From the NCBI GenBank assembly GCA_963663295.2, contig CAXXLA010000002.1, positions 150,843 to 214,842 on the forward strand: 64,000 nucleotides of DNA, given 5' to 3'. The position numbers and the translations under genes are program-made. This DNA comes from Smithellaceae bacterium. GTDB lineage: Bacteria > Desulfobacterota > Syntrophia > Syntrophales > Smithellaceae. Positions 17,879 through 58,634 of the stretch are shown here, in pieces. The notes below the pieces were generated by a model that was not told the DNA's origin, made no database searches, and was given only the letters and a program-made list of their open reading frames with translations. How positions within the stretch are numbered: position 1 is the first letter of the stretch; every line of letters begins with the position of its first letter.

Positions 17879-17889
17879 GCTTTATCTTT

Positions 17890-18039: not shown

Positions 18040-18053
18040 TGTTTTCTCCTGGA

Positions 18054-39742: not shown

Positions 39743-41730
39743 TGGCTGATCAAACGATATTTATTCTTGGTGATTCCACCAGCATGTCCATCGGCTGCGA
39801 GCGGCATATGTATCCATTTATTATGGCTGACAGCAGCTGTTGGCCGGAAGGAATAGAAATTATCAATTGTTCCCAACCCGGTTTTACATCCGCCGACGCC
39901 TGTGCGTTCTTCTTCCGCCACTGGAAGAATTACCCCGGCCTCAAAGCAGTGGTGATATATTTGGGTACATGTGACGCAGCTTCCTGGGAGCTGCGTAAAG
40001 GTAAATATACATTCTTCCGGGAAAATGTGATTCGGTTCAGGGAGCTTTGCGGGTTGAAGAAAGAACGCACCCGGTTGAAAAATCGTCTTCTCCCTTTGGA
40101 ATGGAATAATACTTTTAATCCTTTGATCGAATTACCGGAAACGCCGGAAGATTATGAGTTCAATGTTTCCAGGATTGTCAAGGCCTGTCTGAAATCATCT
40201 ATTCCTGTTGCCGTGATTCGTCCCAAAGCAAATCGTCTGTTTTACCCGGGTTTGGGGAAAGGAAATTTTGTATTTTACAGTTATCTGGGATTGCATGAAA
40301 AACTGTCACATAAGCTTGCAATTTCCGATAAACGATTTGTGGAGGCAATGAGCCTTCAAGAAGCAGGCGATTTCGGGAAAGCAGCTGAAAAATATCGTGA
40401 AATACTGCTGAACTCGGGACCGTTGTCACTGCATTATGAATACCCTCTGCTCATAGTCAATAACTATGCGGTCTGTGTTGCTCAAAAAGGAGAATTAGAT
40501 GAAGCGGAATCTTTGCTTCTTCTTCTTTTAAAGGAAAGAAATGTCAGACGGGAAATAGTTATTTTTAACCTGGCTGAAATTTACCGGATGCGCGGGGATA
40601 ATGAGAAATATCAGAAATACCTTGCTGAATCTTATGAGGCCGATTGCTCAATGTACCGTATTCGGGCACCTTATCTTAAAGCTCTTGACAACATATCAAC
40701 GATGCACGGGAAAAATGTCGATGTTATCGATATTTCGCAATTTATAGATGATGATCTTTACGTGGATCATACCCATCCTTTAAAAGAAGGTCAGCAGCAG
40801 ATAGCGAACAGAATTATTGAATATTTTAGGAGCAAAGGACTATCCGGAGCGCATAAGGCGGAGATAAAAAACATATTATACAATCCGGAATTATCTCTCG
40901 GAAATAATACGGAATTTTTTAATTATTTCAGAACGTATTCTCCTTTTTCAGAAAAAGAGATTAAGGTACACCTGGATTGTATACGATCTGCGAATAATAC
41001 ATCTGAGTATGGAACAAATCTGCTTCAGTCATTGCCGAAAGAACTGAAGACGGCGATAAATTATCATTTACAGCATCCCTGTTTTCCCGAGCTTAAATTT
41101 CTTGTTCATTATGGTCCCAAGTATCCAAGTGATGTCGGAAGATTTCCGGAATATTTTTTAGTCCGGCATCTTATCCCCTATATCAGGTTTTATGAACGGG
41201 AGCAGGAACTTAACAAAATGTTTCCGATAAAAGAAGGTATCCTTCGAACATCGAAGGAACTTTCTGCTGTTTTACCGGAGGACATTGTGCCTCTTGTATC
41301 AGGTGAAGATCCTCTCATCGAATCGTCCCTGGAATCACAAAGGCTTCCGGCAATTCTGTCTGCCTGCAAAAAGAAATTGTTGAGCCATCTTCTTGACGGT
41401 AACCAGGTATATCCACGTATTAAAACCACTATCTTCTGGTATTTCAGAGAAACTCTTCGTTATGGTTCTCATTCACGCATTTCTATGAGATATGATAGAA
41501 CTCTCCTGGAATATATCGCGGAAGCTTTAGCTGTAGCTGCACTTTTGAATTGGAGGCTGCAGTCTGATCGCGGACAGGAGATAAAGGAACTTATTCAGCG
41601 GCTGGAAGAAACGGTCCTTATACACGAGCAGTATTGTCGTAAGTTCAAATTAAGTAATGAATCGGAATCTCTGCTGGAAGAATATAACGGGCGGTTGCAG
41701 AAAATAGCAAACAAATTGGAACATTATTAA
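39742..41730 (+). CDS. multidomain protein: SGNH hydrolase with inserted TPR-like repeats + ~290-aa C-terminal domain of unknown function
   Basis: IFILGDSTSMSIG (GDS block I), VIYLGTCDA, TPR-like AMSLQEAGDFGKAAEKYREIL...NLAEIYRMRGDNEKYQKYLAESYEAD, then YVDHTHPLKEGQQQIANRI (DxxH block V). I recognise nothing in the C-terminal half. Confidence 0.55.
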   Translation: MADQTIFILGDSTSMSIGCERHMYPFIMADSSCWPEGIEIINCSQPGFTSADACAFFFRHWKNYPGLKAVVIYLGTCDAASWELRKGKYTFFRENVIRFRELCGLKKERTRLKNRLLPLEWNNTFNPLIELPETPEDYEFNVSRIVKACLKSSIPVAVIRPKANRLFYPGLGKGNFVFYSYLGLHEKLSHKLAISDKRFVEAMSLQEAGDFGKAAEKYREILLNSGPLSLHYEYPLLIVNNYAVCVAQKGELDEAESLLLLLLKERNVRREIVIFNLAEIYRMRGDNEKYQKYLAESYEADCSMYRIRAPYLKALDNISTMHGKNVDVIDISQFIDDDLYVDHTHPLKEGQQQIANRIIEYFRSKGLSGAHKAEIKNILYNPELSLGNNTEFFNYFRTYSPFSEKEIKVHLDCIRSANNTSEYGTNLLQSLPKELKTAINYHLQHPCFPELKFLVHYGPKYPSDVGRFPEYFLVRHLIPYIRFYEREQELNKMFPIKEGILRTSKELSAVLPEDIVPLVSGEDPLIESSLESQRLPAILSACKKKLLSHLLDGNQVYPRIKTTIFWYFRETLRYGSHSRISMRYDRTLLEYIAEALAVAALLNWRLQSDRGQEIKELIQRLEETVLIHEQYCRKFKLSNESESLLEEYNGRLQKIANKLEHY

Positions 41731-41744: not shown

Positions 41745-43586
41745 ATGTACATTTTGGGGATATCAGCTTTTTACCACGATAGCGCGGCGTGTCTTATTAA
41801 AGACGGAGAAATTATTGCTGCGGCCCAGGAAGAACGCTTTTCAAGAATAAAACATGATTATCGTTTTCCTGAAAAGGCCATCCGGTTTTGTCTTGAGTAT
41901 GCAGGTATTTCTTCCAAAGACTTGGCAGCCGTTGCCTTTTACGAAAAATCGTCCATTAAGTTCGACCGGTTGATTAAAACATATCTCATGTATGCGCCTG
42001 ACGGCCTGAAGTCGTTTCTTGCCTCCATGCCGCTCTGGGTCAGTCAAAAACTCTGGATAAAATCGGAGTTGAAAAAATTACTGGGTTATGCGGGGAAGAT
42101 ATATTTTCCCGAACATCATGAATCACATGCCGCCAGTGCTTTTTTCCCTTCACCGTTTGAGCATGCTGCGTTTCTGACAATGGACGGAGTCGGTGAATGG
42201 ACGACTACAAGCTTTGGAAATGGCGATGGCAATAATATACAAATCCTCAAAGAAATTCATTTTCCTCATTCGTTGGGACTGCTTTATTCCGCCTTTACTT
42301 ATTACACCGGCTTTAAGGTTAATTCGGGGGAATACAAACTCATGGGGCTTGCACCATATGGGGATCCTGTTTATGTCGATGTTATTTATAATAAGCTCAT
42401 TGATGTCAAAGAAGACGGATCATTCCGCTTAAATATGGATTATTTTAATTACTGTACCGGTTTTACGATGACAAACGACAAATTTGACGCCCTCTTCGGA
42501 AGAGGGCCAAGGAAACCGGAAAGTGATATAACCCAACTGGATATGGACCTGGCCAGATCAATACAGCTGGTGACGGAAGACATTGTTCTCAAGATCGGTC
42601 GTTATGTTCACAAAGTAACGGGTAAAAAGAATTTGTGTCTGGCCGGAGGAGTAACCTTGAATTGCGTATCCAATGGTCGCCTCTTCCGGGAAGGTCCGTT
42701 TGAAAATATATGGATTCAGCCTGCTGCTGGAGATGCAGGTGGTGCAGTGGGTGCTGCCCTTTATACATGGTACCAGATTCTTGCTAATCCCAGAAAAATA
42801 AACCGGGAAATGGATGCGCAGCAGGGAACGTATCTGGGACCGGCTTACTCTGATGAAGATATACTCAGTTTTATCGATAGTCGAGGAATTCCCGCTAACC
42901 GGCTTATAAAAGAAGAATTGCCGGGGAAAATCGCCGATATCATTGCCGACGAGGCGGTTGTCGGATGGTTTCAAGGGCGGATGGAATTTGGCCCCCGCGC
43001 ACTGGGTTCACGAAGTATCCTGGGAGATGCACGTTCACCGAAAATGCAGACGGTGATGAATCTCAAAATTAAATTTCGGGAGAGTTTCAGGCCGTTTGCT
43101 CCATCAGTTCTTTGTGAAGAAGTGGCCCACTGGTTCGATATGGATGGTAACCGTCCCATGGGGCAACAGTTCAAATCACCGTATATGTTGATGGTGGGAC
43201 ATGTCAGGAATGATAAATGTATAGAGGAAGGAAAAGTTCCGGAACAGCTAAAAGGTATAGACCGGCTTAAAGTGGTGCGTTCGGAAATACCTGCCGTAAC
43301 GCATGTTGATTGTTCAGCCAGAATTCAGACTGTTCATCGGGAAACAAACGAAACTTTTTATAAAATGATAGAATCTTTTTATAAAAAGACAGGTTGTCCG
43401 GTTGTAATTAACACATCTTTTAATGTTCGGGGAGAACCTATAGTGGAGAGTCCGGAAGATGCCTATCGTTGCTTCATGCGGACGGAAATGGATTATCTGG
43501 TAATGGGCTCTTTTCTTCTTAAGAAGAAGGACCAACCGCCCTATGTTGAAACCAAAGATTGGCGAAAAGAATTTCAACTTGATTAA
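41745..43586 (+). CDS. carbamoyltransferase (NodU/CmcH family), copy 2
   Basis: 613 aa. Contains ILGISAFYHDSAACLIKDGEIIAAAQEERFSRIKHD, FPEHHESHAASAF, GEYKLMGLAPYG, LCLAGGVTLNC and INTSFNVRGEPIVESPEDAYRCF. Paralog of 16019..17878. Confidence 0.9.
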   Translation: MYILGISAFYHDSAACLIKDGEIIAAAQEERFSRIKHDYRFPEKAIRFCLEYAGISSKDLAAVAFYEKSSIKFDRLIKTYLMYAPDGLKSFLASMPLWVSQKLWIKSELKKLLGYAGKIYFPEHHESHAASAFFPSPFEHAAFLTMDGVGEWTTTSFGNGDGNNIQILKEIHFPHSLGLLYSAFTYYTGFKVNSGEYKLMGLAPYGDPVYVDVIYNKLIDVKEDGSFRLNMDYFNYCTGFTMTNDKFDALFGRGPRKPESDITQLDMDLARSIQLVTEDIVLKIGRYVHKVTGKKNLCLAGGVTLNCVSNGRLFREGPFENIWIQPAAGDAGGAVGAALYTWYQILANPRKINREMDAQQGTYLGPAYSDEDILSFIDSRGIPANRLIKEELPGKIADIIADEAVVGWFQGRMEFGPRALGSRSILGDARSPKMQTVMNLKIKFRESFRPFAPSVLCEEVAHWFDMDGNRPMGQQFKSPYMLMVGHVRNDKCIEEGKVPEQLKGIDRLKVVRSEIPAVTHVDCSARIQTVHRETNETFYKMIESFYKKTGCPVVINTSFNVRGEPIVESPEDAYRCFMRTEMDYLVMGSFLLKKKDQPPYVETKDWRKEFQLD

Positions 43587-43763: not shown

Positions 43764-43813
43764 AAACATAAAATAAATTCTGTTTTCGGTTTCTTAAAGA
43801 TAGAGAGGGATTG

Positions 43814-45610
43814 ATGAAGAATATTTACAACATAATAGAAGTTGCCAATACACATGGAGGAGACGCCTCCTATGTAGAAAATCTTGTGGATGAATTTAGT
43901 GACTTAAAAGGCGTCTTTGGTATCAAGTTTCAGCCATTTCATTATGACCGGACTGCATTACCGGACTTTCGGGCATATAATCTTTATAAAAAACTTTACT
44001 TTCCTCCTGACCAGTGGGCGGATTTAATAAAAAAAGCACACAAGACGAAGGATGTCTGGATTGATGTATTTGACGAGTACAGCTGTGAAATAATCAAGGC
44101 AAATTTGGATTCAATTACCGGCCTTAAATTTCAGGCATCCATCTTGTATAACAGTGGCGTCATTCGTAACCTTTCCGGTCTTGACTTAAGATCTAAAAAA
44201 ATTATTTTGAACATTTCCGGAATTGAGCTCTCCAGAATTGCTCCTTTGATCGAGGTGTTCAAGTCAAGGTTGAACCCGCAATCTATTATTCTGCAGGTCG
44301 GTTTTCAGGCTTATCCAACCGAACCGGAAGACGGCGGATTGCAGAAAATTAAAACACTTAAAGAACATTTCGGGACCCATGCGCTTAGTTTTGCCGATCA
44401 CACATCACCTGACAAAGAAGAATCACGTTTGCTCCCGATTATGGCGACAGTTCTTGGTGTCACTTATCTGGAAAAACATGTAAGGCTGTCGGGACCAAAA
44501 CCGGAGTACGATTTTCAGTCGGCGATGGACAAGCAGCAGTACTTGTCTTATCTGGAGGTTATGGAAACCTGCCGGAATTGCTTAGAGTCACCATTCATTA
44601 ATGACAAGGAAAAAACTTATCTTAAAAAATCTATTCAAGTCCCTGTCTTAAAGCGGAACATCCGTGCGGGCAGGCTTATAGACATGGAAAACGATCTTGA
44701 TTTCCGCAGGACTAATCAAGCGGGGCTTTCTGCTGACGAAATTACGGAGCTTGTTAATAATTATTATATCCTTGGGCAGAGTAAAAAAATTGGTGAAACC
44801 CTGCGCAAGGAAGATTTTAAAAAAGCAAATATTGCCGTCGTTATCGGCTGCCGGATGAAATCAACAAGGCTTCCCCGAAAAGCAGTTTTGAAAATCGGGG
44901 AGTTAAGTTCTGTCGAACTCTGCCTGAAAACCGCTCTTCGTTTCAAGAATGTCAATCATGTAATTTTGGCGACTTCATGGCTTGAAGAAGATGCCGAACT
45001 GGAAAAATACACCTACTCAGAGCAGGTTATTTTAGAGAAAGGCCATCCCGACGACGTACTGGATCGATATGTTCAGGTTGTAGATAAATATAAGATTGAC
45101 GTAGTGGTAAGAGCTACAGCCGATATGCCTTACTTGTCCGCAGAAATTTTCGATTTTCTGCTTGATTCTCATTTTCGCAGTGGAGCTGATTATACAAAAG
45201 CGAAAAAGATGGCAGTGGGAACGAGTATATCCATTACCAATGGAGAAGCCTTCCGGCGGGCGAAGTACTATTTTCCTGATGCCGAATACTCTGAATACCT
45301 GACATACTATTTTCTTAATAACCCGAATCATTTCAAACTTAATATGGTGGATTTGCCGCCGGAATTTATTCGCGATTACCGGCTGACGGTTGATTATCAG
45401 GAAGATCTTGATGTGTTTAACTTGATAGAAGCTCACCTGAAGGCCGACAATCTGGAACCTACCATATACAACATATTTGATTTTCTTGATCATAATCCAA
45501 ATGTTGTAGCCATGAACAAAAACATGATCATGACATATGAAGTTGATCAGGCCCTGATAAAAAAAATCAAAGAGCATTCAACAATCAACGTGCCTCCTCT
45601 TGCCGACTGA
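43814..45610 (+). CDS. fusion protein: NeuB-like sugar-acid synthase domain + SAF domain + SpsF/PseF-type cytidylyltransferase
   Basis: N-terminal IIEVANTHGGDASYVENLVDEFSDLKGVFGIKFQ is the NeuB-family IAEIGxNHxG...KxQ pattern. The middle segment VLKRNIRAGRLIDMENDLDFRRT is SAF-like. C-terminal NIAVVIGCRMKSTRLPRKAVLKIG...VILATS...VVRATADMPY is COG1861/CTP_transf_3-like. Confidence 0.65.
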   Translation: MKNIYNIIEVANTHGGDASYVENLVDEFSDLKGVFGIKFQPFHYDRTALPDFRAYNLYKKLYFPPDQWADLIKKAHKTKDVWIDVFDEYSCEIIKANLDSITGLKFQASILYNSGVIRNLSGLDLRSKKIILNISGIELSRIAPLIEVFKSRLNPQSIILQVGFQAYPTEPEDGGLQKIKTLKEHFGTHALSFADHTSPDKEESRLLPIMATVLGVTYLEKHVRLSGPKPEYDFQSAMDKQQYLSYLEVMETCRNCLESPFINDKEKTYLKKSIQVPVLKRNIRAGRLIDMENDLDFRRTNQAGLSADEITELVNNYYILGQSKKIGETLRKEDFKKANIAVVIGCRMKSTRLPRKAVLKIGELSSVELCLKTALRFKNVNHVILATSWLEEDAELEKYTYSEQVILEKGHPDDVLDRYVQVVDKYKIDVVVRATADMPYLSAEIFDFLLDSHFRSGADYTKAKKMAVGTSISITNGEAFRRAKYYFPDAEYSEYLTYYFLNNPNHFKLNMVDLPPEFIRDYRLTVDYQEDLDVFNLIEAHLKADNLEPTIYNIFDFLDHNPNVVAMNKNMIMTYEVDQALIKKIKEHSTINVPPLAD

Positions 45611-45615: not shown

Positions 45616-46671
45616 ATGGCGGAATCCCAATTTCTTTTTCGAGTTGACGCTAATAAGCAAATCGGTACAGGACATTTTTACCGCTGCCTGTATATAGCCC
45701 GTTTGCTGAAAGCAAAGGGGGCAATATCGGTTTTTTTTATGGCCGATGCAGATAAAACTATTTTTGATATCTTGAAAACAGAAGGTCTGGGATTGGTAGA
45801 TGTTCCGAATGATCAAAAATTTACAGCACATTTCCTTTACGAATATTCTCTGATAAGTAATATAAAGGAGTCGCTGCTTGTTGTCGACTGTCCATATCCC
45901 GATTTTTATCGGCAATCTTTTCAAGATGCGATATGCAGCCGGGCAGGCAGGGTCATGATGATTACGTTTCGTAACGAGAGCCACTTCAAAGCAGATGTTG
46001 TTCATAATCAGAACCTTTTTGCCTTGACCGAGGAATATTCCGCAGAACCTCATGCACGTCTTCTTTTAGGACCGGAATATATCATTCTTGATGAAAGATA
46101 TTTAACGCTCCGACATAACAACAGGGATGTCCGCAACAGGGTCGAAACTTTGTTTGTTTTCTTTGGTGGAGTGGACAGCAGCGGTCTGACTCTAAAAGTA
46201 CTAAGTGCTCTGACTATGCTGGAAGAAAGACCCGGGAAAATTGTTACCGTTGTCGGCGCTTTATACGGGCAGGAGAGAGAACTGAGAAAGTTTCTTCATA
46301 ATCATCCTGAACTCCCTGTAGAACTTCATGTTAACACTTCCGATATGCCCTTACTGATGGCCAAAGCCGATCTGGCAATAACCTCGGGGGGGATGAGTAT
46401 CTGGGAGTTAGCCTGTCTGGGAATTCCCGATATAATTATTTCGACTTCGGAAAGAGAAAAAGTACACACGCCGCTTTTGGATCAACGGGGTGCCTGTTTA
46501 TATATTGGGCATTATGATGAAGTTTTGGAAAAACAGATAACGGATTCTGTTAGAAAAATTGCCGGGGACAGACAACAAAGAGAAGCAATGTCTAAAGCCG
46601 CTATGAATGTCGTTGACGGCAAAGGCACACAGAAAGTCGTCCAGCATATGATGGAATTGCTGGTGCAATAA
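45616..46671 (+). CDS. pseG: UDP-2,4-diacetamido-2,4,6-trideoxy-beta-L-altropyranose hydrolase, PseG
   Basis: FLFRVDANKQIGTGHFYRCLYIARLL is the PseG N-terminal motif. FVFFGGVDSSGLT and ADLAITSGGMSIWELACLGIP are the GT-B/MurG-like C-terminal features. Confidence 0.8.
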   Translation: MAESQFLFRVDANKQIGTGHFYRCLYIARLLKAKGAISVFFMADADKTIFDILKTEGLGLVDVPNDQKFTAHFLYEYSLISNIKESLLVVDCPYPDFYRQSFQDAICSRAGRVMMITFRNESHFKADVVHNQNLFALTEEYSAEPHARLLLGPEYIILDERYLTLRHNNRDVRNRVETLFVFFGGVDSSGLTLKVLSALTMLEERPGKIVTVVGALYGQERELRKFLHNHPELPVELHVNTSDMPLLMAKADLAITSGGMSIWELACLGIPDIIISTSEREKVHTPLLDQRGACLYIGHYDEVLEKQITDSVRKIAGDRQQREAMSKAAMNVVDGKGTQKVVQHMMELLVQ

Positions 46672-47723: not shown

Positions 47724-48665
47724 ATGGAACCTTTAGCGCATAATTGCCAAAAAATGAACAAACAGGATATTCATCCTTCAACGGATTGTTTATCAAATCA
47801 AGAATTTCTTAATCTATACTATAGGCTACGTGATGAGGCCCGGATTATACCGGAAGGATCTTTCTACCCTAATATTCAATTGCTCTGCGCCACTCCTTTT
47901 GAAAGAGAAAAGGACAGGAGAGAACAGCATCAATGGCAGCAGGATAATAATCCCTGGACGGACGTGACTGAATGGTATCATCAGGCTAAAGATCAGTCTT
48001 GTGTCTGGTGGCTGGAAAATCATGTCATAGCTAAGCATGCCATAACAAGTTGTATGAGTTGCGGAGCATGTACGGCGCTTTGCCCGGCTGCCGAGTTTTA
48101 CGAATTCAGCCCACGGGAAATTATGACAATGGTACAGGAAAAGCAGGAAGATGCTTTAGTTGAACTGCTGAAATCGGATTTTTTGTGGTATTGCCACCAA
48201 TGTGGTTCCTGCAAAACAAAATGTCCCCGTCAAAATAGCCCCTTTGGTATGATTTCTTCTTTGCGGCAGTTAAGTCAGCTTAAAGGTTATCATGTGGAGA
48301 GCATTCGCGGCAGACAACAATACTTTGCGCGTCACTTGTGGGGTGGTAACCTCTGGAACAGAGCCTGCACACTTTATTTCAGGAATGCTCATCCTGACAA
48401 ACATCTGGATTTCGGTCCTCGCTTTGCCACGTATTTCAAAAGACAGGAAGAATACATGAAAAAAGTAGGCGCGCACCCTGATATGGAAGGTCCTTATTCC
48501 GGACGTAAAGTTCATCCTGAAACATTGGATGAGTTAAGAAAATTATGGATGGCTGGCGGCGCATTGTTTTTCTGGTCGCTGATCGATCAGGCTGCCGAGA
48601 AACAGGCCGCGGAAATGGGGCTTTCCGTCGAAGAATATCATGAAAAAGTTAAAACAGAAGGTTAA
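47724..48665 (+). CDS. HdrC-like 2x[4Fe-4S] ferredoxin-domain protein with N- and C-terminal extensions
   Basis: CMSCGACTALCP (aa 110-121) and CHQCGSCKTKCP with HdrC-type spacing (..FSPREIM...LWYC..). 313 aa, against about 190 for typical HdrC. Confidence 0.7.
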   Translation: MEPLAHNCQKMNKQDIHPSTDCLSNQEFLNLYYRLRDEARIIPEGSFYPNIQLLCATPFEREKDRREQHQWQQDNNPWTDVTEWYHQAKDQSCVWWLENHVIAKHAITSCMSCGACTALCPAAEFYEFSPREIMTMVQEKQEDALVELLKSDFLWYCHQCGSCKTKCPRQNSPFGMISSLRQLSQLKGYHVESIRGRQQYFARHLWGGNLWNRACTLYFRNAHPDKHLDFGPRFATYFKRQEEYMKKVGAHPDMEGPYSGRKVHPETLDELRKLWMAGGALFFWSLIDQAAEKQAAEMGLSVEEYHEKVKTEG

Positions 48666-48671
48666 TAGTTA

Positions 48672-49709
48672 ATGGTTAATTACAATAAAAAGGGACGTCA
48701 ACTTGCATGGCAGAAATATTCCAAGGATATCCCCTCGGATAATTATTTTCTGACCTTCAGTTGTATTTTGGGAAGCTTTTATCCTGCTTCCGAAACTATG
48801 GTTCCCAGAATTTACGATCTGCTTAATATAAATTGGAAGACTTCATATGAGTCCAAATCCGGTTGGTCCTGTTGTACGGCAATCGGCTACCATGGCGACA
48901 TTATGCCGATTGAATCTACTCTATTGACGGTGGCCAGACTCTGGTCTATTGCGCAGGAAGCCGGAGCTAAAGTCATTACACCAACCTGTGTAACATCCTT
49001 CGGCACTTATTGTGAGTGCAAGGATATTCTGGAACATGAACCGGAACTGAGAAGAAAAATAAAACGATTATTAAAGGACACCTGTGGCAGGGAGTTTGAA
49101 CTACCGGAATATTTGGTCCATGTAAGCGACATTTATTACCATCATCGCGAACGTATTAAAAAACATTTTAAATATAGTCTGACCGAAGCAAAAACCGGTC
49201 GTCCTCTGCAGGTAGTCGATCATATTGGTTGTCATTACAGCAAATTGTTTCCGGAAAAACATGTTGTCGGCGGTTCTGAATATTGTGAAGTGCTGGCAGG
49301 CATGGTGAGCTCATGGGGCGGGGAAAACATTGATTATCCGGAACGCCGCCACTGCTGCGGCATGGGGTTTCGTCAATGCATGATTCCGCCCAATCGCGGG
49401 GCGACACTTTCCAATGTTTACAAAAAAATAAAAAGCATGGCACCCTTTAATCCTGATCTGATCGTGACAAATTGCCCGGGCTGCGAAGTGTTTTTGGACA
49501 AGGAACAATGGGCGATCTATGAATTAACCGGTGAGAAATATTTTATTCCTGTTTTGACTTATCAGGAATTAGCGGGGCTCCTTCTGGGATGGGATCCGTA
49601 TGATGTGGTTGGCATTGATTCTCATACAGTTCCCGTCGAGCCTTTGCTGGACAAAATAGGCATCGCCTACGAAAAAGAAAAATCCATGCATAACGAAAAT
49701 ATCGGATAG
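48672..49709 (+). CDS. HdrB-like protein with two CCG-type cysteine-rich domains
   Basis: Domain 1 is FSCILGSFYP...GWSCCTAIGYHG...ITPTCVTSFG, with CCT rather than CCG. Domain 2 is DHIGCHYSK...RRHCCGMGFRQ...VTNCPGCEVFL. Confidence 0.7.
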   Translation: MVNYNKKGRQLAWQKYSKDIPSDNYFLTFSCILGSFYPASETMVPRIYDLLNINWKTSYESKSGWSCCTAIGYHGDIMPIESTLLTVARLWSIAQEAGAKVITPTCVTSFGTYCECKDILEHEPELRRKIKRLLKDTCGREFELPEYLVHVSDIYYHHRERIKKHFKYSLTEAKTGRPLQVVDHIGCHYSKLFPEKHVVGGSEYCEVLAGMVSSWGGENIDYPERRHCCGMGFRQCMIPPNRGATLSNVYKKIKSMAPFNPDLIVTNCPGCEVFLDKEQWAIYELTGEKYFIPVLTYQELAGLLLGWDPYDVVGIDSHTVPVEPLLDKIGIAYEKEKSMHNENIG

Positions 49710-49714
49710 AAAGT

Positions 49715-50773
49715 ATGATTAAAAAAACAATCAACAGTAAAGTAATGATAATTGGTGGCGGTGTAACCGGGCTCGCAGCAGCTATTTCTCTGGACGCGCT
49801 GGGAATTGATTCCATAATTATTGAAAAAAATTCCGCACTGGGCGGAAAGGTAAAAGACTATTCCAAAATATTTCCCGATTTTCGCAGCGGGAAAACTCTT
49901 GTCCGGGAGCTTATTGATAAAGTTGAACAATCTTCACGCATCAGAACGATTGTTTCCGCTTCCGTTACCTCGACAGAAAGAATTGACGGAACTTATTCTG
50001 TTTTGGTTTCGGATAACAATAGATATAATGTCAAGGCTATAATTCTTACCTGCGGTTTTGAAGTCTTTGATGCGCGGCTGCAGGATGAATATGGTTATGG
50101 TGTTTATCCGAATGTTGTCAATTCACTGGACTTGGAAGCATTGCTGGAGACCCAGGAAAAGAAGGGCGGCATGTTGCTGCGGCCATCCGATGGAAAACCA
50201 GTGAACAGGATGGCAATTATTTTTTGTGTCGGTTCGCGCAGCAAGCGTCTGGGTAATCCTTATTGCTCGAGGATTTGCTGTTCGTATAGCACAAAGCAGG
50301 CCATCGAAATAATGGAGAAGAATCCCGATGCCAGCGTGACTTGCTTCTATATGGATATCAGAACCTACGACCGCGGTTTTGAGGAAATGTATCAGTATGC
50401 TCAGGAACTGGGTGTAAAGTATATTCGGGGGAGAGTATCTGAGTGCAGTGCTCTGCCCGATGGTGACATTCAAGTGCGCGCCGAAAATACTCTGCTGGGC
50501 AGGCCTGTACAGGGTATTTTTGATTTGATTTCATTGTCTGTAGGTATGATGCCGTGCGCCGATGCCGAAGATCTTGCCGGGCTTCTCGGTATTGAACGCA
50601 GCGATGACGGTTTCTTTACAAAGAAAGATAAATATTTTTCTCAACATGATACTGTTCAAGAGGGTATTTTCCTTGCCGGCAGTTTGACCGGGCTGAAACC
50701 GATTAAGGATTGTCTGTTGGAAGGGAATTCAGTAAGCGGCAGGGTTGCCGCTTATCTCAATGAATGCAAGTAA
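49715..50773 (+). CDS. short HdrA-like FAD/FeS flavoprotein
   Basis: VMIIGGGVTGLAAAISL...IIEKNSALGGK (dinucleotide fold), FCVGSRSKRLGNPYCSRICCSYSTKQAIE (HdrA-type Cys cluster) and C-terminal GIFLAGSLTG. 352 aa, with no ferredoxin-type domains. Confidence 0.7.
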   Translation: MIKKTINSKVMIIGGGVTGLAAAISLDALGIDSIIIEKNSALGGKVKDYSKIFPDFRSGKTLVRELIDKVEQSSRIRTIVSASVTSTERIDGTYSVLVSDNNRYNVKAIILTCGFEVFDARLQDEYGYGVYPNVVNSLDLEALLETQEKKGGMLLRPSDGKPVNRMAIIFCVGSRSKRLGNPYCSRICCSYSTKQAIEIMEKNPDASVTCFYMDIRTYDRGFEEMYQYAQELGVKYIRGRVSECSALPDGDIQVRAENTLLGRPVQGIFDLISLSVGMMPCADAEDLAGLLGIERSDDGFFTKKDKYFSQHDTVQEGIFLAGSLTGLKPIKDCLLEGNSVSGRVAAYLNECK

Positions 50774-50774
50774 T

Positions 50775-52043
50775 ATGAATCATAGAGAAGTGAAAAACAT
50801 TGATTATGGTTGGAGGCTCAACGGCAGGCCCATCCTTTTTTATAAAGACCGGTCGCTTGCAGCCGATGAATCAACACACCAAATGGAAAAAGCGCTGCGA
50901 CAGATGAGCATGGAATACTATGCCCTGGACCGGTGTCTGCAATGTGGAATTTGTTCCAGCTTCTGTCCGAATAACTTGATTAAGACAACGGAGTCCTTTT
51001 CGCCGCGTGACTTTATTCAGAAAACCCGTTTGGGGCTGCTGGATCTGAACGGAGATGAATTATGGATGTGCACTAACTGCGGCCACTGCCAGATGGTATG
51101 TCCTTTCGAAATTCCGCTTCTGGAAGTAATGGCCGGTCTGCGGCATCTTGTTGTCGAACAGGGTGCGGGGCATGTACCGGTTTCTATCAAGAGTTCAATT
51201 GCATCCATATCTTTCTATGGCAATCCCTGGAAAGAAGAAACGTCCAGCCGAATAAAGTGGATTCAAGGGATGGAAACGGCACAGGCTGTCGCGACTGCAG
51301 AAGAAACGGTTCACATCTTTTTGGGTTGTTTTCCGGGATATGATCGACGAGCTCGCAAAACAGCGGAAGCAGCGATGTACATCCTGCAGATCGCGAAAAT
51401 ACCATTTAAAATATTGTCTGATGAGGAAGTATGTTGCGGAGATACCGTCCGCAGAATCGGAGATTTTGCAACCTCGGAGAAGGTAAAAAATATTAACAAG
51501 AAAAATTTTCTTAAAAACAGTGTAAGAAAACTTTATGTTCTTTCTCCCCATTGCCTCAATGCATTTCAGGACCTGTATGTAAAAGAAAACTATCATCAGA
51601 TCAGGATAGCCCCGTTGCTTGAACTTGTTTATGATTTGATCGGTAAAGGAATTATCAAACTGAATAAATATCAGGATAAAAGAGTTACCTTTCATGATCC
51701 CTGTTTTTTCAGCAAGCATCTCAACATCATTGCCCAGCCCAGGGAAATCCTCGACAGGATGCAGGGTATTGAAAGAATGGAAATGGAACACAGTGGCAAA
51801 AAAAGTTTATGCTGCGGCGGTGGTGGCGGAGGCATATGGCGCGATGCGAAAAAAGGCGAGCGTTTATCCGAAATTCGCCTGGATGAAGCATTAGGTATAG
51901 GCGCCGACATTATTGTTACCAGTTGCCCATACTGTCTGTCGATGCTGGAGGACGCCAGGCAAGCGGATGAGAAATACAGGCAAATCGAAATAATGGATAT
52001 TTGTGAATTAGTAGTGAAAGGAATGTGTGATGAAAATAATTGA
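50775..52043 (+). CDS. HdrD/GlcF/LutA-like FeS oxidoreductase (2x[4Fe-4S] + two CCG domains)
   Basis: The ATG at 50775 lies 1 nt after the upstream stop. Contains CLQCGICSSFCP and CTNCGHCQMVCP. CCG domains are FLGCFPGYD...VCCGDTVRR...SPHCLNAF and HDPCFFSKH...LCCGGGGGGIW...TSCPYCLSML. Confidence 0.75.
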   Translation: MNHREVKNIDYGWRLNGRPILFYKDRSLAADESTHQMEKALRQMSMEYYALDRCLQCGICSSFCPNNLIKTTESFSPRDFIQKTRLGLLDLNGDELWMCTNCGHCQMVCPFEIPLLEVMAGLRHLVVEQGAGHVPVSIKSSIASISFYGNPWKEETSSRIKWIQGMETAQAVATAEETVHIFLGCFPGYDRRARKTAEAAMYILQIAKIPFKILSDEEVCCGDTVRRIGDFATSEKVKNINKKNFLKNSVRKLYVLSPHCLNAFQDLYVKENYHQIRIAPLLELVYDLIGKGIIKLNKYQDKRVTFHDPCFFSKHLNIIAQPREILDRMQGIERMEMEHSGKKSLCCGGGGGGIWRDAKKGERLSEIRLDEALGIGADIIVTSCPYCLSMLEDARQADEKYRQIEIMDICELVVKGMCDENN

Positions 52044-52854
52044 TTCCAGAGTTCGACTGCGCACCGAACAACTTTTGAAAATATGGACATCCGAACAAAA
52101 AAGTTGTTACAGTGATTATATCCAGTTATATAAGATGAAATCACGTCTGAGCCCAATGCCGGTAAAGGAATTGATAGATTGTGCTGCTGCCAGCGGCATC
52201 GAGCAAATGATGGCTTATGGTATTACCGCCGAAGATAATGCGCAGATTATTGGTTTGTCACAACAGTTTAAGGAAATAATTCCGGTTGCAGGCATTAGTA
52301 TTGAAAGAGGCATCCGTTATGCTTTACGTGACACAAAAAAATATTTTGCCGAGGGCTGTGCCGCGATTTGTTTATCACCTTTTACTTTTAATTACAGTGT
52401 CAATGACAAACTGCTTTATCCTCTATACGGGCTTTGTGAACTTTTAGGGAAAACAGTTATTGTTCATGGTTCCATTCACTTTTGGCGAGGCGCCTATATG
52501 TGGCATGGTCAGCCGCAAAACATCGACGAGATAGCAGTTGATTTCCCGGAACTTAAACTCATTGTTTCTCATGGCGGCAATGGTTTTGGACCATCAATTC
52601 TTGCTGTCGCCCAGCGTCATCCTAACGTCTATCTGGAATTCAGTGCGCTTAATCCTGCATATATGGCTCCTGAGTTTCTTTATGCCGCCAACACATATTT
52701 AAAAAATAAATGTATCTTTGGCACCGATTATCCTCTAGTAGATTTCGGTGTTGCAGTTTCACGATGGGAAAAAGTATTGAAAGAAGATGCCCAGGAGTTA
52801 TTTTTCAGCACTAATTTATTGAATGTTCTAAACGGAAAGCCTCAGCCGTTTTAA
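52030..52854 (+). CDS. amidohydrolase-2 family TIM-barrel protein (atypical N-terminal metal motif)
   Basis: 14-nt overlap with the upstream gene. Contains IIDSRVRL where the family usually has DxHxH. Also has VIVHGS, LIVSHGG and CIFGTDYPLVD. Confidence 0.6.
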   Translation: MKIIDSRVRLRTEQLLKIWTSEQKSCYSDYIQLYKMKSRLSPMPVKELIDCAAASGIEQMMAYGITAEDNAQIIGLSQQFKEIIPVAGISIERGIRYALRDTKKYFAEGCAAICLSPFTFNYSVNDKLLYPLYGLCELLGKTVIVHGSIHFWRGAYMWHGQPQNIDEIAVDFPELKLIVSHGGNGFGPSILAVAQRHPNVYLEFSALNPAYMAPEFLYAANTYLKNKCIFGTDYPLVDFGVAVSRWEKVLKEDAQELFFSTNLLNVLNGKPQPF

Positions 52855-53632: not shown

Positions 53633-54658
53633 ATGTCTTTGTTTAAATCAAAACCTTTCATTATTGCCGAGATGTCCGGCAACCATAATCAATCGCTGGA
53701 ACGTGCTCTTGCTATAGTAGAAGCTGCAGCCAAATCTGGTGCACATGCGATAAAGTTGCAGACTTACACGGCGGATACCATGACGCTGGATATTGCTGAA
53801 GGGGAATTTTTTATCAATGATGCAAGAAGCCTTTGGAAAGGACAATCTCTGTATAAGCTTTATCAAAAGGCCTATACCCCTTGGGAATGGCATGCGCCAA
53901 TATTCAACTATGCCCGTAAATTAGGGCTGATTGCGTTTAGTTCACCCTTTGATGAGACTGCGGTTGATTTTCTGGAGTCGCTGCATGTGCCCTGCTACAA
54001 GATTGCTTCGTTTGAAAATACGGATATCCCATTGATTAAAAAAGTTGCGGCTACAGGTAAACCCATGATTATTTCCACTGGAATGGCTACAATAGATGAG
54101 TTGGATGAAACAGTACGTGCAGCAAGAGCATCCGGATGCAATAATCTTGTTTTGTTGAAATGCACAAGTACATATCCGGCGACACCGGAAAATTCGAATC
54201 TATTGACAATTCCACATATGAAAGAGTTGTTCAATTGTGAAGTAGGATTGTCAGATCATACAATGGGTATTGGCACGGCTGTTGCAGCTGTCGCTGTGGG
54301 AGCTGTAGTCATCGAAAAGCATTTTACGTTAAACCGTTCTGATGGCGGAGTTGATTCTTCATTTTCTTTGGAACCATTAGAATTGGCTCAGCTCGTTACA
54401 GAAACTGAACGGGCATGGCAATCTCTGGGTAAGGTATTCTATGGACCAACCAAAGATGAAGAGTTTGCCGTTACTCGACGCCGTTCGATATATATTGTTA
54501 AGGATATGAAAGCCGGCGATGTGTTGACCAAAGATAATCTCCGCTGTATCAGGCCGGGCCATGGTCTTGCCCCCAGGTATTATGAGAATCTGCTGGGAAA
54601 GACGATTAAAAGCGATGTTAAAAAAGGCACTCCAATGCACTGGGATTTACTGTCGTAG
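53633..54658 (+). CDS. pseI: pseudaminic acid synthase, PseI
   Basis: KPFIIAEMSGNHNQSLERALAIVEAAAKSGAHAIKLQTYTADTMTL...YKIASFENTDIPLI...ISTGMAT...LLKCTSTYPA...VGLSDHT..., followed by a C-terminal SAF domain. Colinear with C. jejuni PseI. Confidence 0.9.
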   Translation: MSLFKSKPFIIAEMSGNHNQSLERALAIVEAAAKSGAHAIKLQTYTADTMTLDIAEGEFFINDARSLWKGQSLYKLYQKAYTPWEWHAPIFNYARKLGLIAFSSPFDETAVDFLESLHVPCYKIASFENTDIPLIKKVAATGKPMIISTGMATIDELDETVRAARASGCNNLVLLKCTSTYPATPENSNLLTIPHMKELFNCEVGLSDHTMGIGTAVAAVAVGAVVIEKHFTLNRSDGGVDSSFSLEPLELAQLVTETERAWQSLGKVFYGPTKDEEFAVTRRRSIYIVKDMKAGDVLTKDNLRCIRPGHGLAPRYYENLLGKTIKSDVKKGTPMHWDLLS

Positions 54659-56663: not shown

Positions 56664-58634
56664 GTGATCTTTTATTGCGACAAATTGACATGGGCCGCCT
56701 GCCGTAAGGCAGAAAATCTCCGGCGAAGTCTTTGCTTGAACAACAAACTCATCGATCTGCGAGTTCTTGATCCTCTGCCCTCTAAAATAAAGAATACGCT
56801 GATGCTCCATTGTCTGGGCAGGCACTTCAGAATTCAGGAAGAACAATTTATAGCGGGCAGACTCCGGTCGGTTGATGATCAACCCGTTTATATTGCAGCA
56901 AGAAGACTGGCTCATGATGCCGCATTTAAAGCCGCACAATTATTTATAGACAAGTCATCCAAAATTAATAATTTTAACCAATTTTGGAAACGGAATACAA
57001 TACTCCTTAACTTGGCTGAATTTTTTTGGACTGCCGTTAACGAAATCATTGTTCGAATATTTGTGGCCGAGGCATTAATGCGTGAATCCGGGCGGGACGA
57101 TGCTTTGTTACTTATTGCTTTACCCGAATATATTGACCCGACGGTATTTGAAAATTGTTCTGCAATATTAAAAATTGAGTTTTATAAAGAAAGAGGCGTT
57201 CAGCAATTTTATGGTATGCTATGGTTGCTGAGGGAAAATTTAAGAAAATTGAAGTGGATGGTTCAGAAGGGCGGCAAGGACAAACTCAGAATGATCCTGC
57301 CGAATGATAATGAACCCTCTCTTCTCTTGTTACAGGAGGATGAAATATCTTCTGATCGATCATACAGGACACAGCCACATTGGTTTGATCCGGCAAAACC
57401 ATTACAATATCGTACATTAATCCTTAAAACATTTGATGATAATCAAGAAATCAAAGGAAGTCCTGAAAAGTCAGACGAAAAAATATTTTCCATTCATCCG
57501 TCTTCATGGCATTTTTTACCGTCAAACAATAAAAATCAGCATCCGATCGAAAAAAAACTGACAAAGGATTTACGACGCTGCATCCGGACATTAAGAAAAA
57601 GTGAACGGATGGCAATGTTTACGCTCATCCGTCTTTTTTATATGGCAAGAAATCTTGCCGTTTTTTGCCGTGAGAAAAATGTCAGAGCGTTTATGACCTG
57701 TGAGAATTATATGCCCTCTGCGGATGCGATGCAGCTTATTGCGGATCCACTTAATATTCGAACCATATCTTATCAATATTCAAACATGAGTCACGTTGGT
57801 CCCCATATGCTGACAACGGCGGAGCTTATGTTTACTTTTTCTTCTATGTATCATGAAAGGTGGAGTTATCATGATATCAGGCCGGGGAAATTTATTGATG
57901 TCGGATATGTTTTTGACGGCTCGTTTAAATATATACAGGAAAGAGCAAAAATTCTCCGAAAAAAGATGATGGAAAAAGGCTGCCGGTTTATTATTTGTTT
58001 TTTTGATGAAAATGCTTTTGACGGTAAATATGAACTGGTTACCAAAAAAGACTTAGTACAGGAAATTCAATGTCTGTTGACGCGGCTTATTGAAGATTCA
58101 TCATTGGGGCTTGTTATAAAAAATCAGTTTCAATGGAATGCCGTGCAACAGTTTCCGGAAATTGCCGAATTGAGAAAAAAAGCTTTATTAACCGGACGCT
58201 ATGTTGAACTTTCGGTTGGAACAAAGCGAAATATAGTTTTTCCTGCTGAAGCTGCACTTGTTGCAGATATTGTTATCGGGCATGCAGTAGGAGCTACTGC
58301 TCCCCTGGAAGCAGCTTTGGCCGGAGTTCGAACCATTCTTCTTAATCCCTATGAAATGGACAGCAGGAATGATTTCATTTATCGACAGGCGGATATAGTT
58401 TATCACTCGCTCGAAGAAATATTTGATGCTATTGCCGACTTCAGAGCCGGGAAAACAGAACGACTTGCTTTGGGTGATTGGAATCATATAATTGACCGCT
58501 TCGACTCTTTTCGCGATGGAAATGCCGGACAACGCATGAGGGATGTCCTGGATAAGATCATGATTAAACAAGTGATTCCCGAGGCTATTGTGGATAATTT
58601 ACCGGGAGGCAGAGCGGCTGCAGATTACTGCTGA
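56664..58634 (+). CDS. large hypothetical protein (possible GT-B-like sugar transferase)
   Basis: Long ORF, GTG at 56664 and first in-frame ATG at 56802. A CTGCC-GTAA-GGCAG hairpin at 56699..56712 lies in the putative 5' end, so the real start may be downstream. The C-terminal half (FIICFFDENAF...LVIKNQF...IVIGHAVGATAPLEAALAGVRTILLN) looks Rossmann-like. I recognise no family. Confidence 0.5.
   Translation: MIFYCDKLTWAACRKAENLRRSLCLNNKLIDLRVLDPLPSKIKNTLMLHCLGRHFRIQEEQFIAGRLRSVDDQPVYIAARRLAHDAAFKAAQLFIDKSSKINNFNQFWKRNTILLNLAEFFWTAVNEIIVRIFVAEALMRESGRDDALLLIALPEYIDPTVFENCSAILKIEFYKERGVQQFYGMLWLLRENLRKLKWMVQKGGKDKLRMILPNDNEPSLLLLQEDEISSDRSYRTQPHWFDPAKPLQYRTLILKTFDDNQEIKGSPEKSDEKIFSIHPSSWHFLPSNNKNQHPIEKKLTKDLRRCIRTLRKSERMAMFTLIRLFYMARNLAVFCREKNVRAFMTCENYMPSADAMQLIADPLNIRTISYQYSNMSHVGPHMLTTAELMFTFSSMYHERWSYHDIRPGKFIDVGYVFDGSFKYIQERAKILRKKMMEKGCRFIICFFDENAFDGKYELVTKKDLVQEIQCLLTRLIEDSSLGLVIKNQFQWNAVQQFPEIAELRKKALLTGRYVELSVGTKRNIVFPAEAALVADIVIGHAVGATAPLEAALAGVRTILLNPYEMDSRNDFIYRQADIVYHSLEEIFDAIADFRAGKTERLALGDWNHIIDRFDSFRDGNAGQRMRDVLDKIMIKQVIPEAIVDNLPGGRAAADYC

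Follow-up and report, generated by a model that had tools for sequence, protein, structure and literature searches.

The 64,000-nucleotide (nt) stretch of a Smithellaceae genome analysed here (contig CAXXLA010000002.1, positions 150,843 to 214,842; hereafter the window) carries, within a pseudaminic acid cluster, a cassette of five co-directional open reading frames (ORFs) on the plus strand. These encode HdrC-like, HdrB-like, short HdrA-like and HdrC/HdrB fusion-like proteins, named for subunits of heterodisulfide reductase (Hdr), and an Amidohydro_2 enzyme, and they are set between pseG and a tandem-GNAT gene on one side and the genes for an LbH protein and PseI on the other (Table 1). We conclude that the cassette is very probably a conserved glycan-tailoring module and not an energy-metabolism operon. 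It is portable and glycan-associated without being specific to pseudaminic acid; its constant element is the amidohydrolase, together with an N-acyltransferase, and this core is partnered alternatively by the Hdr genes or by CysH. This would place an Hdr/sHdr-like complex in a new, biosynthetic setting. As to function, we tentatively favour, at somewhat less than an even chance, a complex that would act as a dedicated, sHdr-like source of sulfite feeding the amidohydrolase and the N-acyltransferases that decorate amino sugars.

Recurrence of the cassette and alternative partners of the amidohydrolase

With ATG starts at 50775 and 52030, the spacings in the ORF listing of the window are 12, 6, 5, 1 and -14 nt, which reproduces exactly the tight packing of five ORFs described in a first-pass annotation of this DNA (gaps of 12, 6, 5 and 1 nt and a 14-nt overlap), and the flanking genes named there, pseG/tandem-GNAT, LbH and pseI, were borne out by Pfam and NCBIfam matches. 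Promoter- and terminator-like signals between 43 and 57 kb of the window did not exceed shuffled expectation and none lay at the cassette borders; a promoter and terminator private to the block, which had been named beforehand as a sign against its belonging to the glycan operon, are thus not apparent above chance, and the cassette genes are 1-12 nt apart or overlapping. The arrangement is not a product of chance because the identical gene order recurs at at least 22 distinct loci elsewhere.

To describe this recurrence we compared loci (L-numbers) from sampled neighbourhoods and from a scan of GTDB species representatives, with tblastn of the window proteins against all loci. The HdrB-like protein has thousands of relatives, the top 120 of them at 55% identity or more. 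In group A (HdrB at least 62% identical) the order is C-B-A-fusion-Amidohydro_2 as in the window, usually with LbH next, and the hosts are Syntrophaceae, Smithella, Syntrophus buswellii DM-2, other deltaproteobacterial metagenome-assembled genomes (MAGs) and a spirochaete; across these hosts the block is kept at 46-91% identity in differing glycan clusters. Group B (50-60%), found in Acidobacteriota, Planctomycetota, Acidimicrobiia and Dehalococcoidia, has a TcuB-like Fer4 protein followed by C-B-A, with neither the fusion nor the amidohydrolase, and group C (about 43%), with members in cyanobacteria and one Altiarchaeales genome, is arranged C-B-A-C2-B2 as in type I sHdr. Examples of group B are L006:7909-16533 and L025-L078 from peat and soil Acidobacteriota, Planctomycetota and Acidimicrobiia, where the Fer4 protein is TcuB/CitB-like and, in L006, the set is divergent from genes for a cysteine desulfurase, an HdrD-like protein and DsrC. 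Used as a marker in this way, the HdrB-like protein alone gave no clue to function.

An exact match to the HdrA-like protein of the window was looked for and is not on record; the nearest relatives of the window cassette are in Syntrophaceae and Smithella. One of them (L094) is 93-98% identical and shares with the window the segment from the cassette through PseI and the gene for an Asn-synthase-like protein, and another (L020) is syntenic with the entire Pse segment. Orthologous blocks do lie beside nonulosonic acid genes, namely in L020, L094 and L105, as the first-pass annotation would predict, but the cassette is not specific to pseudaminic acid: it also occurs with WbpA/B/E/D-like genes for 2,3-diamino uronic acids (L001, L017, L019), with FnlABC-like genes of FucNAc type (L008), in other glycan clusters and in one sugar-catabolism neighbourhood. 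Among 137 ORFs flanking 15 cassettes, the Pfam census gave 14 hexapeptide transferases, five DegT proteins, five flippases, five tandem GNATs, four GFO/IDH/MocA proteins and three NeuB proteins. Locus L017 belongs to Syntrophus buswellii DM-2, a cultivated host with a complete genome (NZ_CP175563.1).

Two recurrent gene pairs were seen beside the cassette. A 535-aa (amino acid) protein with no Pfam or NCBIfam match is paired with a pyridoxal phosphate enzyme of the Orn/DAP/Arg-decarboxylase fold in L003:13771-16685, L011:5121-8047, L098:6-2606 and L099, in L011 alongside BAHD-type 'Transferase' family genes; this pair might conceivably point to an amine decoration. Two hotdog/MaoC-like ORFs (149 and 145 aa) lie between the amidohydrolase and the tandem GNAT in L019:14945-15842, L108:8138-9039 and L111:6590-7491; LbH is missing from these places, and in L019 a 522-aa protein of unknown type intervenes. 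The replacement of LbH by this pair hints at enoyl- or hydroxyacyl-thioester intermediates.

The choice of partners emerged from a metagenome scan with the amidohydrolase alignment followed by tblastn, which gave 61 distinct amidohydrolase sequences, 51 of them at informative loci and 10 on contigs too short to judge. HdrC-B-A-D(fusion) genes stood directly upstream of the amidohydrolase in 22 of the 61, CysH stood directly downstream in another 22 (median gap 67 nt), and none of the 61 had both adjacent, so that one of the two partners was adjacent at 44 of the 51 informative loci. The sister amidohydrolases, 48-60% identical, keep the glycan/LbH context, lack the Hdr genes and have a PAPS_reduct gene immediately after them, as in an Asgard archaeon (L091) and Marinimicrobia (L092). 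The CysH proteins of these two loci score 237 and 215 bits against NF002537, the phosphoadenylyl-sulfate reductase equivalog (cutoff 154), the catalytic ECG[LIV]H motif is present in all 28 near-full CysH copies, and CC...CxxC is present in the two copies inspected. By profile and motif, then, the CysH partners are predicted to be genuine assimilatory adenylyl-sulfate/phosphoadenylyl-sulfate (APS/PAPS) reductases, a family found in these sister loci and not in the window. The sole known product of APS/PAPS reductase is sulfite.

Neighbour joining puts the Hdr-linked amidohydrolases into a single nested clade and leaves those linked to CysH as a basal, paraphyletic remainder, a topology that fits a putative single replacement event. 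LbH lies within 1.5 kb of the amidohydrolase at 18 of the 22 Hdr-type and eight of the 22 CysH-type loci. The latter have two layouts: a glycan layout with flippase, methyltransferase, LbH, amidohydrolase, CysH, tandem GNAT and epimerase, and a polyprenyl layout with amidohydrolase, CysH, UbiA, UbiA, FAD (flavin adenine dinucleotide) oxidoreductase and UbiA. At L114:7225-13443, L116, L119, L126 and L129 the amidohydrolase-CysH pair is followed by two to three UbiA prenyltransferases, an amine-oxidase/phytoene-desaturase-like FAD enzyme and an unknown protein of 840-1070 aa. The UbiA-type layout is less suggestive of a classical glycan cluster than of a product carried on a polyprenyl or lipid. 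In Hdr-type and CysH-type loci alike there are recurrent tandem GNATs of about 380 aa, and a GNAT of about 330 aa is directly upstream of the amidohydrolase in L107-type loci.

These patterns bear on the earlier proposal that the cassette is a redox-tailoring system for a nonulosonic acid. The link that it drew between the Hdr block and nonulosonic acid genes stands in part, whereas CysH as the alternative partner points to sulfite supply and not to the hydroxyacyl/ketoacyl tailoring or electron supply that had been suggested. What was observed directly is the gene architecture with its cofactor motifs, a conserved block in a glycan context, and an exclusive partnering of the amidohydrolase with either Hdr genes or CysH.

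The cassette proteins compared with known Hdr-type systems

Family assignments of the Hdr-type proteins come from Pfam and NCBIfam profile searches read against equivalog cutoffs, and motif conservation from a comparison of 19 orthologues. The HdrC-like protein matches Fer4_8 (43 bits) and falls well below the HdrC equivalog (NF041779, 81 bits, cutoff 350); its two motifs, CMSCGACTALCP (from residue 110) and CHQCGSCKTKCP (from residue 157), are kept in all 19 orthologues, and the same doubled CX2CX2CX3CP pattern occurs in 19 of 19 copies of the fusion protein. The HdrB-like protein has a CCG domain and 168 bits against HdrB NF041780 (cutoff 450), methanogen HdrB chains matching it at about 108 bits. 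Its C-terminal motif is complete (C187, C228-C229 in CCG, C268 and C271), and its N-terminal motif consists of C31, C67-C68 (CCT) and C106 in a CxxS variant, with C116 and C138 also kept, again in every orthologue.

The HdrA-like protein scores 273 bits with HdrA2 NF040770 (cutoff 1100). Its residues 10-341 are co-linear with residues 4-333 of sHdrA (6TJR, 204 bits) and there are no inserted ferredoxin domains; its C-terminal half matches methanogen HdrA 5ODC at 209 bits, and in that comparison only the thioredoxin-reductase-fold halves align (5ODC 138-264 and 321-563). GGGVTG and CSRICC, and C171, C184, C188 and C189, are found in all 19 orthologues. The fusion protein combines Fer4 with two CCG domains, the first with four cysteines (C195, C230, C231, C270) and the second with five (C320, C356, C357, C394, C397), likewise invariant; its top family match is TfrB (151 bits, cutoff 385) and its top PDB match is 9OJN, an 'iron-sulfur-binding reductase'. 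In the HdrB-like and fusion proteins alike, one noncubane motif is complete with five cysteines and the other is incomplete with four. All of the cysteine and flavin motifs listed in the first-pass annotation (2x CxxCxxCxxxCP, CCT then CCG, GGGVTG, CSRICC) were recovered, and the profile searches of the five proteins that it had called for upheld its domain assignments, with Hdr-type scores well under the equivalog cutoffs.

The best-scoring solved relatives of the A, B and C subunits are methanogen HdrABC structures (5ODC, 8RVU), with which they share the CCG noncubane motif, an HdrC with two [4Fe-4S] motifs and the CX12CX3CC [4Fe-4S] motif of HdrA with FAD. The cassette differs from them in its HdrA of 352 rather than about 650 aa, without the N-terminal and inserted ferredoxin domains, in the degenerate first CCG motif of HdrB (CCT, CxxS), in the extra C/B fusion, in scores that reach 17-37% of the equivalog cutoffs and in the lack of Mvh, Fdh and coenzyme M/coenzyme B genes; equivalog scores, a long HdrA and two complete HdrB CX(n)CCGX(m)CXXC motifs, the marks of methanogen-type HdrABC, are thus all missing. 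Nor are the proteins ordinary LutABC, GlcDEF or GlpABC subunits, a possibility that had been raised against the glycan-tailoring proposal: GlcF scored 18-30 bits (cutoff 333), GlpC at most 72 (cutoff 278) and LutB 15-35 (cutoff 445), and the window annotation contains none of the partner genes of such subunits, be it LutB/LutC (DUF162), GlcD/E or GlpA/B.

The closest architectural parallel is with sHdr systems, whose core gene orders are shdrC1-B1-A-H-C2-B2, or C1-B1-A-H-B3 with etfAB(-emo), in one syntenic cluster (PMC11094781). Oxidation of sulfane sulfur to sulfite is reported for the sHdr-LbpA system, and sHdr is 'always accompanied' by LbpA and sulfur transferases; in type II (shdrC1B1AHB3-etfAB-emo), C2 and B2 are replaced by the fusion protein sHdrB3, which binds one noncubane cluster only (PMC11094781). 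The resemblance of the C-B-A-fusion order to sHdr operons that the first-pass annotation had pointed out is real, and it is to type II specifically (PMC11094781). Like type II sHdr, the cassette has the order C, B, short A and C/B fusion, an HdrA of about 350 aa without ferredoxin domains and co-linear with 6TJR, and a B3-type fusion with one complete noncubane motif, and the proposed product, sulfite, would match the APS reductase partner of the sister loci. In contrast, it lacks sHdrH, for which the 1-nt gap leaves no room, and the full core gene order with etfAB(-emo), these last genes not being adjacent; it is translationally coupled to an Amidohydro_2 gene and embedded in glycan clusters, its hosts are syntrophic anaerobes and not known sulfur oxidisers, and in sequence it is roughly equidistant from methanogen Hdr and sHdrA. 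Because LbpA, TusA/DsrE and sHdrH are absent, the predicted complex is not a canonical sHdr.

The amidohydrolase belongs to Amidohydro_2 both by profile (PF04909, 87.2 bits against a gathering threshold of 26.4) and by its TIM-barrel fold. The AlphaFold2 model (predicted local distance difference test score 90.8) is an eight-strand barrel and its nearest Foldseek neighbour is 3IRS (BB4693, function unknown; E = 2e-16, TM-score 0.81), followed by LigY, LigW, ACMSD and LigJ. Fold and profile searches found no characterised close relative; the reactions of these fold neighbours are hydration, decarboxylation and C-C hydrolysis on activated alkenes. In common with the BB4693-like branch (3IRS/3K4W) and with LigY, LigW, ACMSD and LigJ, the enzyme has the barrel, the β5 and β6 histidines and the β8 aspartate, keeping H147, H151, H182, H198 and D234. 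It differs from them in lacking the β1 HxH metal motif of metal-dependent members such as ACMSD and LigW, which is replaced by D6-x-R8-x-R10-x-R12 (D6-x-R8, at the end of β1, is nearly invariant in 30 sequences), in a SHGGNGFG loop of its own and in forming a narrow subfamily. The 161 indexed matches are nearly all 274 aa long and at least 51% identical, and in an exhaustive profile search the family amounts to about one 50%-identity representative, with 36 representatives at E ≤ 1e-30. In the model, the arginine-rich D-x-R-x-R-x-R at the barrel mouth would suit an anionic ligand, for example sulfite or a sulfonate.

A possible sulfite supply and competing explanations

The complex is read as a dedicated sulfite source because of two observations taken together, its type II sHdr parts list and the mutually exclusive partnering of the amidohydrolase with an APS reductase. 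In the following scheme we infer that the proteins form a complex, that sulfite is the product shared with CysH and which way the reaction runs, as well as the reaction of the amidohydrolase and the final substituent. The four Hdr-like proteins would form one cytoplasmic iron-sulfur/FAD complex built like the one proposed for type II sHdr, with HdrA between an HdrC/HdrB arm and an arm made of the HdrC-HdrB fusion. The role of this complex would be biosynthetic and not energetic: sulfite, or S(IV) in an equivalent form, would pass from it to the Amidohydro_2 enzyme, whose gene is translationally coupled to the block. Together with LbH and the tandem GNAT, that enzyme would then attach a group derived from a sulfur oxyanion, most likely a sulfonate, to an amino sugar or to the N-acyl group of one; in the window the target would be a pseudaminic acid precursor. 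The complex could work either oxidatively on persulfide or polysulfide, like sHdr, or by reductive S-SO3 cleavage of thiosulfate or S-sulfonates, which is nearer to proven HdrB chemistry, and the amidohydrolase might add sulfite to an activated C=C in analogy to the hydration catalysed by LigJ, a suggestion drawn purely by inference. In other lineages the same amidohydrolase/acyltransferase core would receive sulfite from the adjacent assimilatory APS/PAPS reductase, which the Hdr-like complex may have replaced in syntrophic anaerobes of sulfate-poor, sulfidic habitats.

There is a possible precedent in Bacillus subtilis, where yitB, a CysH paralogue, is reportedly encoded with the sulfolactate genes yitCD as a dedicated sulfite supply for sulfonate biosynthesis. 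The CysH-type amidohydrolase loci resemble this arrangement in having a sulfite-forming enzyme in a biosynthetic cluster apart from housekeeping sulfate assimilation, and differ from it in that the acceptor enzyme is an uncharacterised Amidohydro_2 protein and not ComA and that, in the lineage of the window, an Hdr-like complex takes the place of CysH.

Other genes with links to sulfur were found near members of the family. At L004, from a spirochaete MAG, the genes convergent with those of the cassette and amidohydrolase encode cysteate synthase (374 bits, cutoff 325), the two parts of a split sulfopyruvate decarboxylase (alpha, 185 bits, cutoff 148; beta, 215 bits, cutoff 221.5) and a class III aminotransferase; they occupy L004:14377-18288 on the minus strand and look like a bacterial taurine or sulfoacetaldehyde operon, which would consume sulfite, and an Asn-synthase-like gene lies on the other side of the cassette. 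In L020 a 521-aa membrane protein of the YeiH family (PF03601, 'putative sulfate export transporter'; L020:11071-12636) is encoded between hdrB and hdrA; it has an N-terminal extension of about 180 aa, in a cluster that is otherwise a syntenic Pse/Hdr cluster. Sulfotransferase matches occur near a partner-less amidohydrolase in L093 and L152, the latter match being faint. Lone HdrB paralogues, about 79% identical to the window HdrB and without A, C and D, lie within L014:7067-11562 and L015:7317-13781, from the same MAGs as L012 and L011, respectively. They are preceded by IscU-, Mrp/ApbC- and NifX-like genes (recognised by eye) and a gene with an MBL-fold match, and are followed by a hotdog-like gene (again by eye). 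The next gene in L015 gives a full-length match to coenzyme A (CoA)-disulfide, CoA-persulfide and polysulfide reductases, with a rhodanese domain and 327 bits to 3ICR, and is followed by a possible DsrE-like ORF of 115 aa.

Several points weigh against sulfite supply by the complex. LbpA, TusA, DsrE, rhodanese and sHdrH are not among the annotated window ORFs, as the first-pass annotation had already remarked for a lipoate-binding protein, TusA and DsrE; none of these five is among the recurrent families of the 137 ORFs flanking 15 cassettes (flanks of about 5-10 kb), the Pfam lists of L001, L003, L004, L008 and L010 contain neither LbpA nor sulfur transferases, and there are no lipoate-maturation genes near the window cassette. 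The block encodes no electron acceptor or donor for the complex. Seven of the 51 informative loci have neither partner adjacent to the amidohydrolase (in one of them, L146, the Hdr fusion gene is about 5 kb upstream), and the cassette in L003 lacks the amidohydrolase and sits beside MFS, GH2 and UxaC sugar-catabolism genes. Sulfite as the common currency would be a case of guilt by association. To our knowledge no Amidohydro_2 enzyme uses sulfite and no sulfonated pseudaminic acid is known; a literature search, of incomplete coverage, found no report of the latter. A more extended version of the scheme appears doubtful to us as a whole: that the complex makes sulfite anaerobically from sulfide, persulfide or thiosulfate in sulfate-starved syntrophs, that the amidohydrolase is a new sulfite-dependent C-S-forming enzyme, that the surface bears a sulfonated pseudaminic acid, other amino sugar or N-acyl group, and that the same holds for the amidohydrolase-CysH pairs in Marinimicrobia glycans and in Asgard archaeal and other polyprenyl-linked pathways.

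The alternatives differ in how much of this pattern they account for. Generic redox tailoring without sulfur, in which the sugar, or an N-acyl group on it such as hydroxyacyl, ketoacyl or enoyl, would be oxidised or reduced by the complex, with the amidohydrolase acting on that intermediate as a hydratase, decarboxylase or deacylase, draws on the presence of CCG proteins in lactate, glycolate, glycerol-3-phosphate and succinate oxidation, on the hydratases and decarboxylases among the fold neighbours of the amidohydrolase, on the hotdog/MaoC-like pair of L019, L108 and L111 with the thioester chemistry that it suggests and on the seven amidohydrolases that do without an adjacent partner. We nevertheless judge it unlikely, for it leaves unexplained why an APS reductase should be the only alternative partner, at 22 of 61 loci, and why cysteate synthase/sulfopyruvate decarboxylase and YeiH-family genes should be neighbours, and the window annotation contains no substrate-binding dehydrogenase subunit (LutB/C, GlcD, GlpA or TfrA).

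A thiol/disulfide service, in which a disulfide, persulfide or thiosulfonate reductase would regenerate a thiol reductant or handle a thiol substituent such as a cysteinyl amino sugar, with thioredoxin-dependent CysH chemistry as its equivalent, seems decidedly improbable. S-S cleavage is the one proven chemistry of noncubane CCG clusters, as in HdrB structures, and the HdrB-like and fusion proteins each keep one complete five-cysteine motif; CysH itself forms a thiosulfonate on the enzyme, which a dithiol then resolves, dissimilatory APS reductase is fed by the HdrA/HdrC-like complex Qmo, and a lone HdrB paralogue adjoins the CoA-persulfide-reductase-type enzyme. However, the Hdr-type blocks encode no thioredoxin, glutaredoxin, cysteine ligase or APS reductase, and electron feed to CysH would predict co-occurrence when Hdr genes and CysH were never seen together (0/61). 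The remaining explanation, an ordinary energy operon (sHdr, methanogen-type Hdr or Lut/Glc/Glp oxidase) lying in a glycan cluster by chance, is hardly credible. Sequence similarity to Hdr and sHdr subunits, the EtfAB and EMO-like oxidoreductase in the same window and the group B relatives (50-60%) beside DsrC and cysteine desulfurase in non-glycan contexts speak for it, but gene context has already largely refuted it: the block occurs in glycan clusters of differing type at at least 22 distinct loci with tight gaps or overlaps and with promoter and terminator signals that do not exceed chance, every equivalog cutoff is missed, LbpA, TusA, DsrE, sHdrH, Mvh and LutB/C are absent, and the etfBA/EMO genes are 37 kb away in a β-oxidation block.

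The surrounding window and the meaning of the cassette

Table 1. Positions in the window of the cassette genes and of the pseudaminic acid cluster genes next to them.
Feature	Position	Strand	Evidence or remark
PseG	45616..46671	+	TIGR03590 160.6 bits (cutoff 153.55)
Tandem-GNAT acyltransferase, 329 aa	46722..47711	+	Weak Acetyltransf_1 and Acetyltransf_3 matches; directly upstream of cassette
HdrC-like ferredoxin subunit, 313 aa	47724..48665	+	Two [4Fe-4S] motifs, N- and C-terminal extensions
HdrB-like CCG subunit, 345 aa	48672..49709	+	C-terminal five-Cys noncubane motif complete, N-terminal incomplete
Short HdrA-like FAD/[4Fe-4S] flavoprotein, 352 aa	49715..50773	+	sHdrA architecture
HdrC/HdrB fusion (HdrD/TfrB/sHdrB3-like), 432 aa	50745..52043 (likely ATG 50775)	+	Fer4 and two CCG domains
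Amidohydro_2 TIM-barrel enzyme, 274-275 aa	52027..52854 (likely ATG 52030)	+	PF04909; 14-nt overlap with fusion gene
LbH (hexapeptide) nucleoside diphosphate (NDP)-amino-sugar N-acyltransferase, 195 aa	52939..53526	+	Hexapep 88 bits; NeuD/PglB/VioB subfamily 79 bits
PseI pseudaminic acid synthase	53633..54658	+	TIGR03586 506 bits (cutoff 340)
Asn-synthase-like (PP-loop) protein, 644 aa	54712..56646	+	Weak TIGR01536 match, 31 bits, residues 83-292

The part of the window from 27 to 64 kb is a single large glycan cluster that encodes GT2 glycosyltransferases, Wzy, PseB, an RmlD-like/PseC fusion, Acyl_transf_3, a carbamoyltransferase, a NeuB-like/CMP-transferase fusion, a flippase and a polysaccharide deacetylase. 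That it is a pseudaminic acid cluster follows from PseI and PseG matches at equivalog level and the presence of PseB-, PseC- and PseF-like proteins (Polysacc_synt_2 334 bits, DegT 412 bits and CTP_transf_3 62 bits). Relative to the canonical pathway (PseB, C, H, G, I, F), the window has PseB-like, PseC-like (fused to RmlD-like), PseG, PseI and a PseF-like CTP-transferase fusion, and differs in that six extra genes interrupt the pathway between PseG/GNAT and PseI. The RmlD-like reductase fused to a DegT/PseC aminotransferase (724 aa) is encoded at 35176-37350 and the divergent NeuB-like domain fused to a CMP-sugar cytidylyltransferase (599 aa) at 43811-45610. There are two NodU/CmcH-type carbamoyltransferases, at 16019-19852 and 41745-43586, one of them within the Pse cluster; the other, on the minus strand, is beside an SxtJ-like small protein and a GDSL-family protein. 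Four glycan-cluster ORFs, at 39742-41730, 56664-58634, 61007-62869 and 33121-34032 (662, 656, 620 and 303 aa, respectively), have no Pfam match; the 662- and 656-aa ORFs have no NCBIfam match either and are kept in the syntenic L020 at 60% and 43% identity. The carbamoyltransferase, the Acyl_transf_3 and Asn-synthase-like proteins and the several unknowns point to a putative, heavily modified nonulosonic acid.

As for the acyltransferases, the tandem GNAT has a 72% identical orthologue at the same position in L020, and a sequence search detected no solved relative. The nearest solved structures to the LbH protein are the N-acetyltransferases 7S43/7S3U, a WxcM-like protein, QdtC and WlbB, and by these matches it is predicted to be a QdtC/WlbB-class NDP-amino-sugar N-acyltransferase. 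A γ-carbonic anhydrase serving a decarboxylase was considered for this protein and dropped, its best score being to sugar N-acyltransferases and its matches to the QdtC and WlbB structures. The 644-aa Asn-synthase-like protein, a possible amidotransferase or amide ligase, has orthologues after PseI in L020, L094, L110 and L146.

The first-pass annotation had also drawn attention to etfBA and a membrane CCG oxidoreductase in the same window. These genes are present (etfB/etfA and a membrane Fer4 plus two-CCG oxidoreductase at 6296-10389), about 37 kb upstream of the cassette and in a β-oxidation block, and no link to the cassette was found. The block, at 4239-15940, is one of β-oxidation and syntrophy, with an acyl-CoA ligase, EtfB, EtfA, a NarI-like plus Fer4 plus two-CCG EMO-like oxidoreductase (8245-10389), a second AMP-ligase, an enoyl-CoA hydratase, an acyl-CoA dehydrogenase and a phosphoglycerate-mutase-like protein, and it looks like housekeeping reverse-electron-transport machinery; the arrangement of its etf, EMO and β-oxidation genes is as described for syntrophic β-oxidation (PMC3582634). 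By analogy with type II sHdr, the EtfBA/EMO-like proteins might in principle accept electrons from the cassette complex.

We found no description in the literature, from full-text searches of incomplete coverage, of Hdr-like genes with an amidohydrolase in glycan clusters or of amidohydrolase-CysH pairs, and we know of Hdr/sHdr complexes only from energy metabolism, that is, methanogenesis, sulfate reduction and sulfur oxidation. If the proposed sulfite supply is correct, Hdr-type complexes would gain a biosynthetic role hard-wired into surface-glycan synthesis, which would suggest a way for strict anaerobes living on sulfide to acquire the S(IV) that sulfonate synthesis needs without activating sulfate. 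The small, uncharacterised Amidohydro_2 subfamily gains a concrete substrate hypothesis, sulfite with an activated sugar or acyl acceptor, and its core comes with two natural supply modules, the Hdr cassette and CysH. The existence of a cultivated host, Syntrophus buswellii DM-2, makes the question directly testable. The nonulosonic and diamino sugars of Syntrophia, Marinimicrobia and Asgard archaea would then carry a previously undescribed sulfur-bearing decoration, one with possible consequences for syntrophic contact between cells, for recognition by phages and for how much sulfur the envelope contains.

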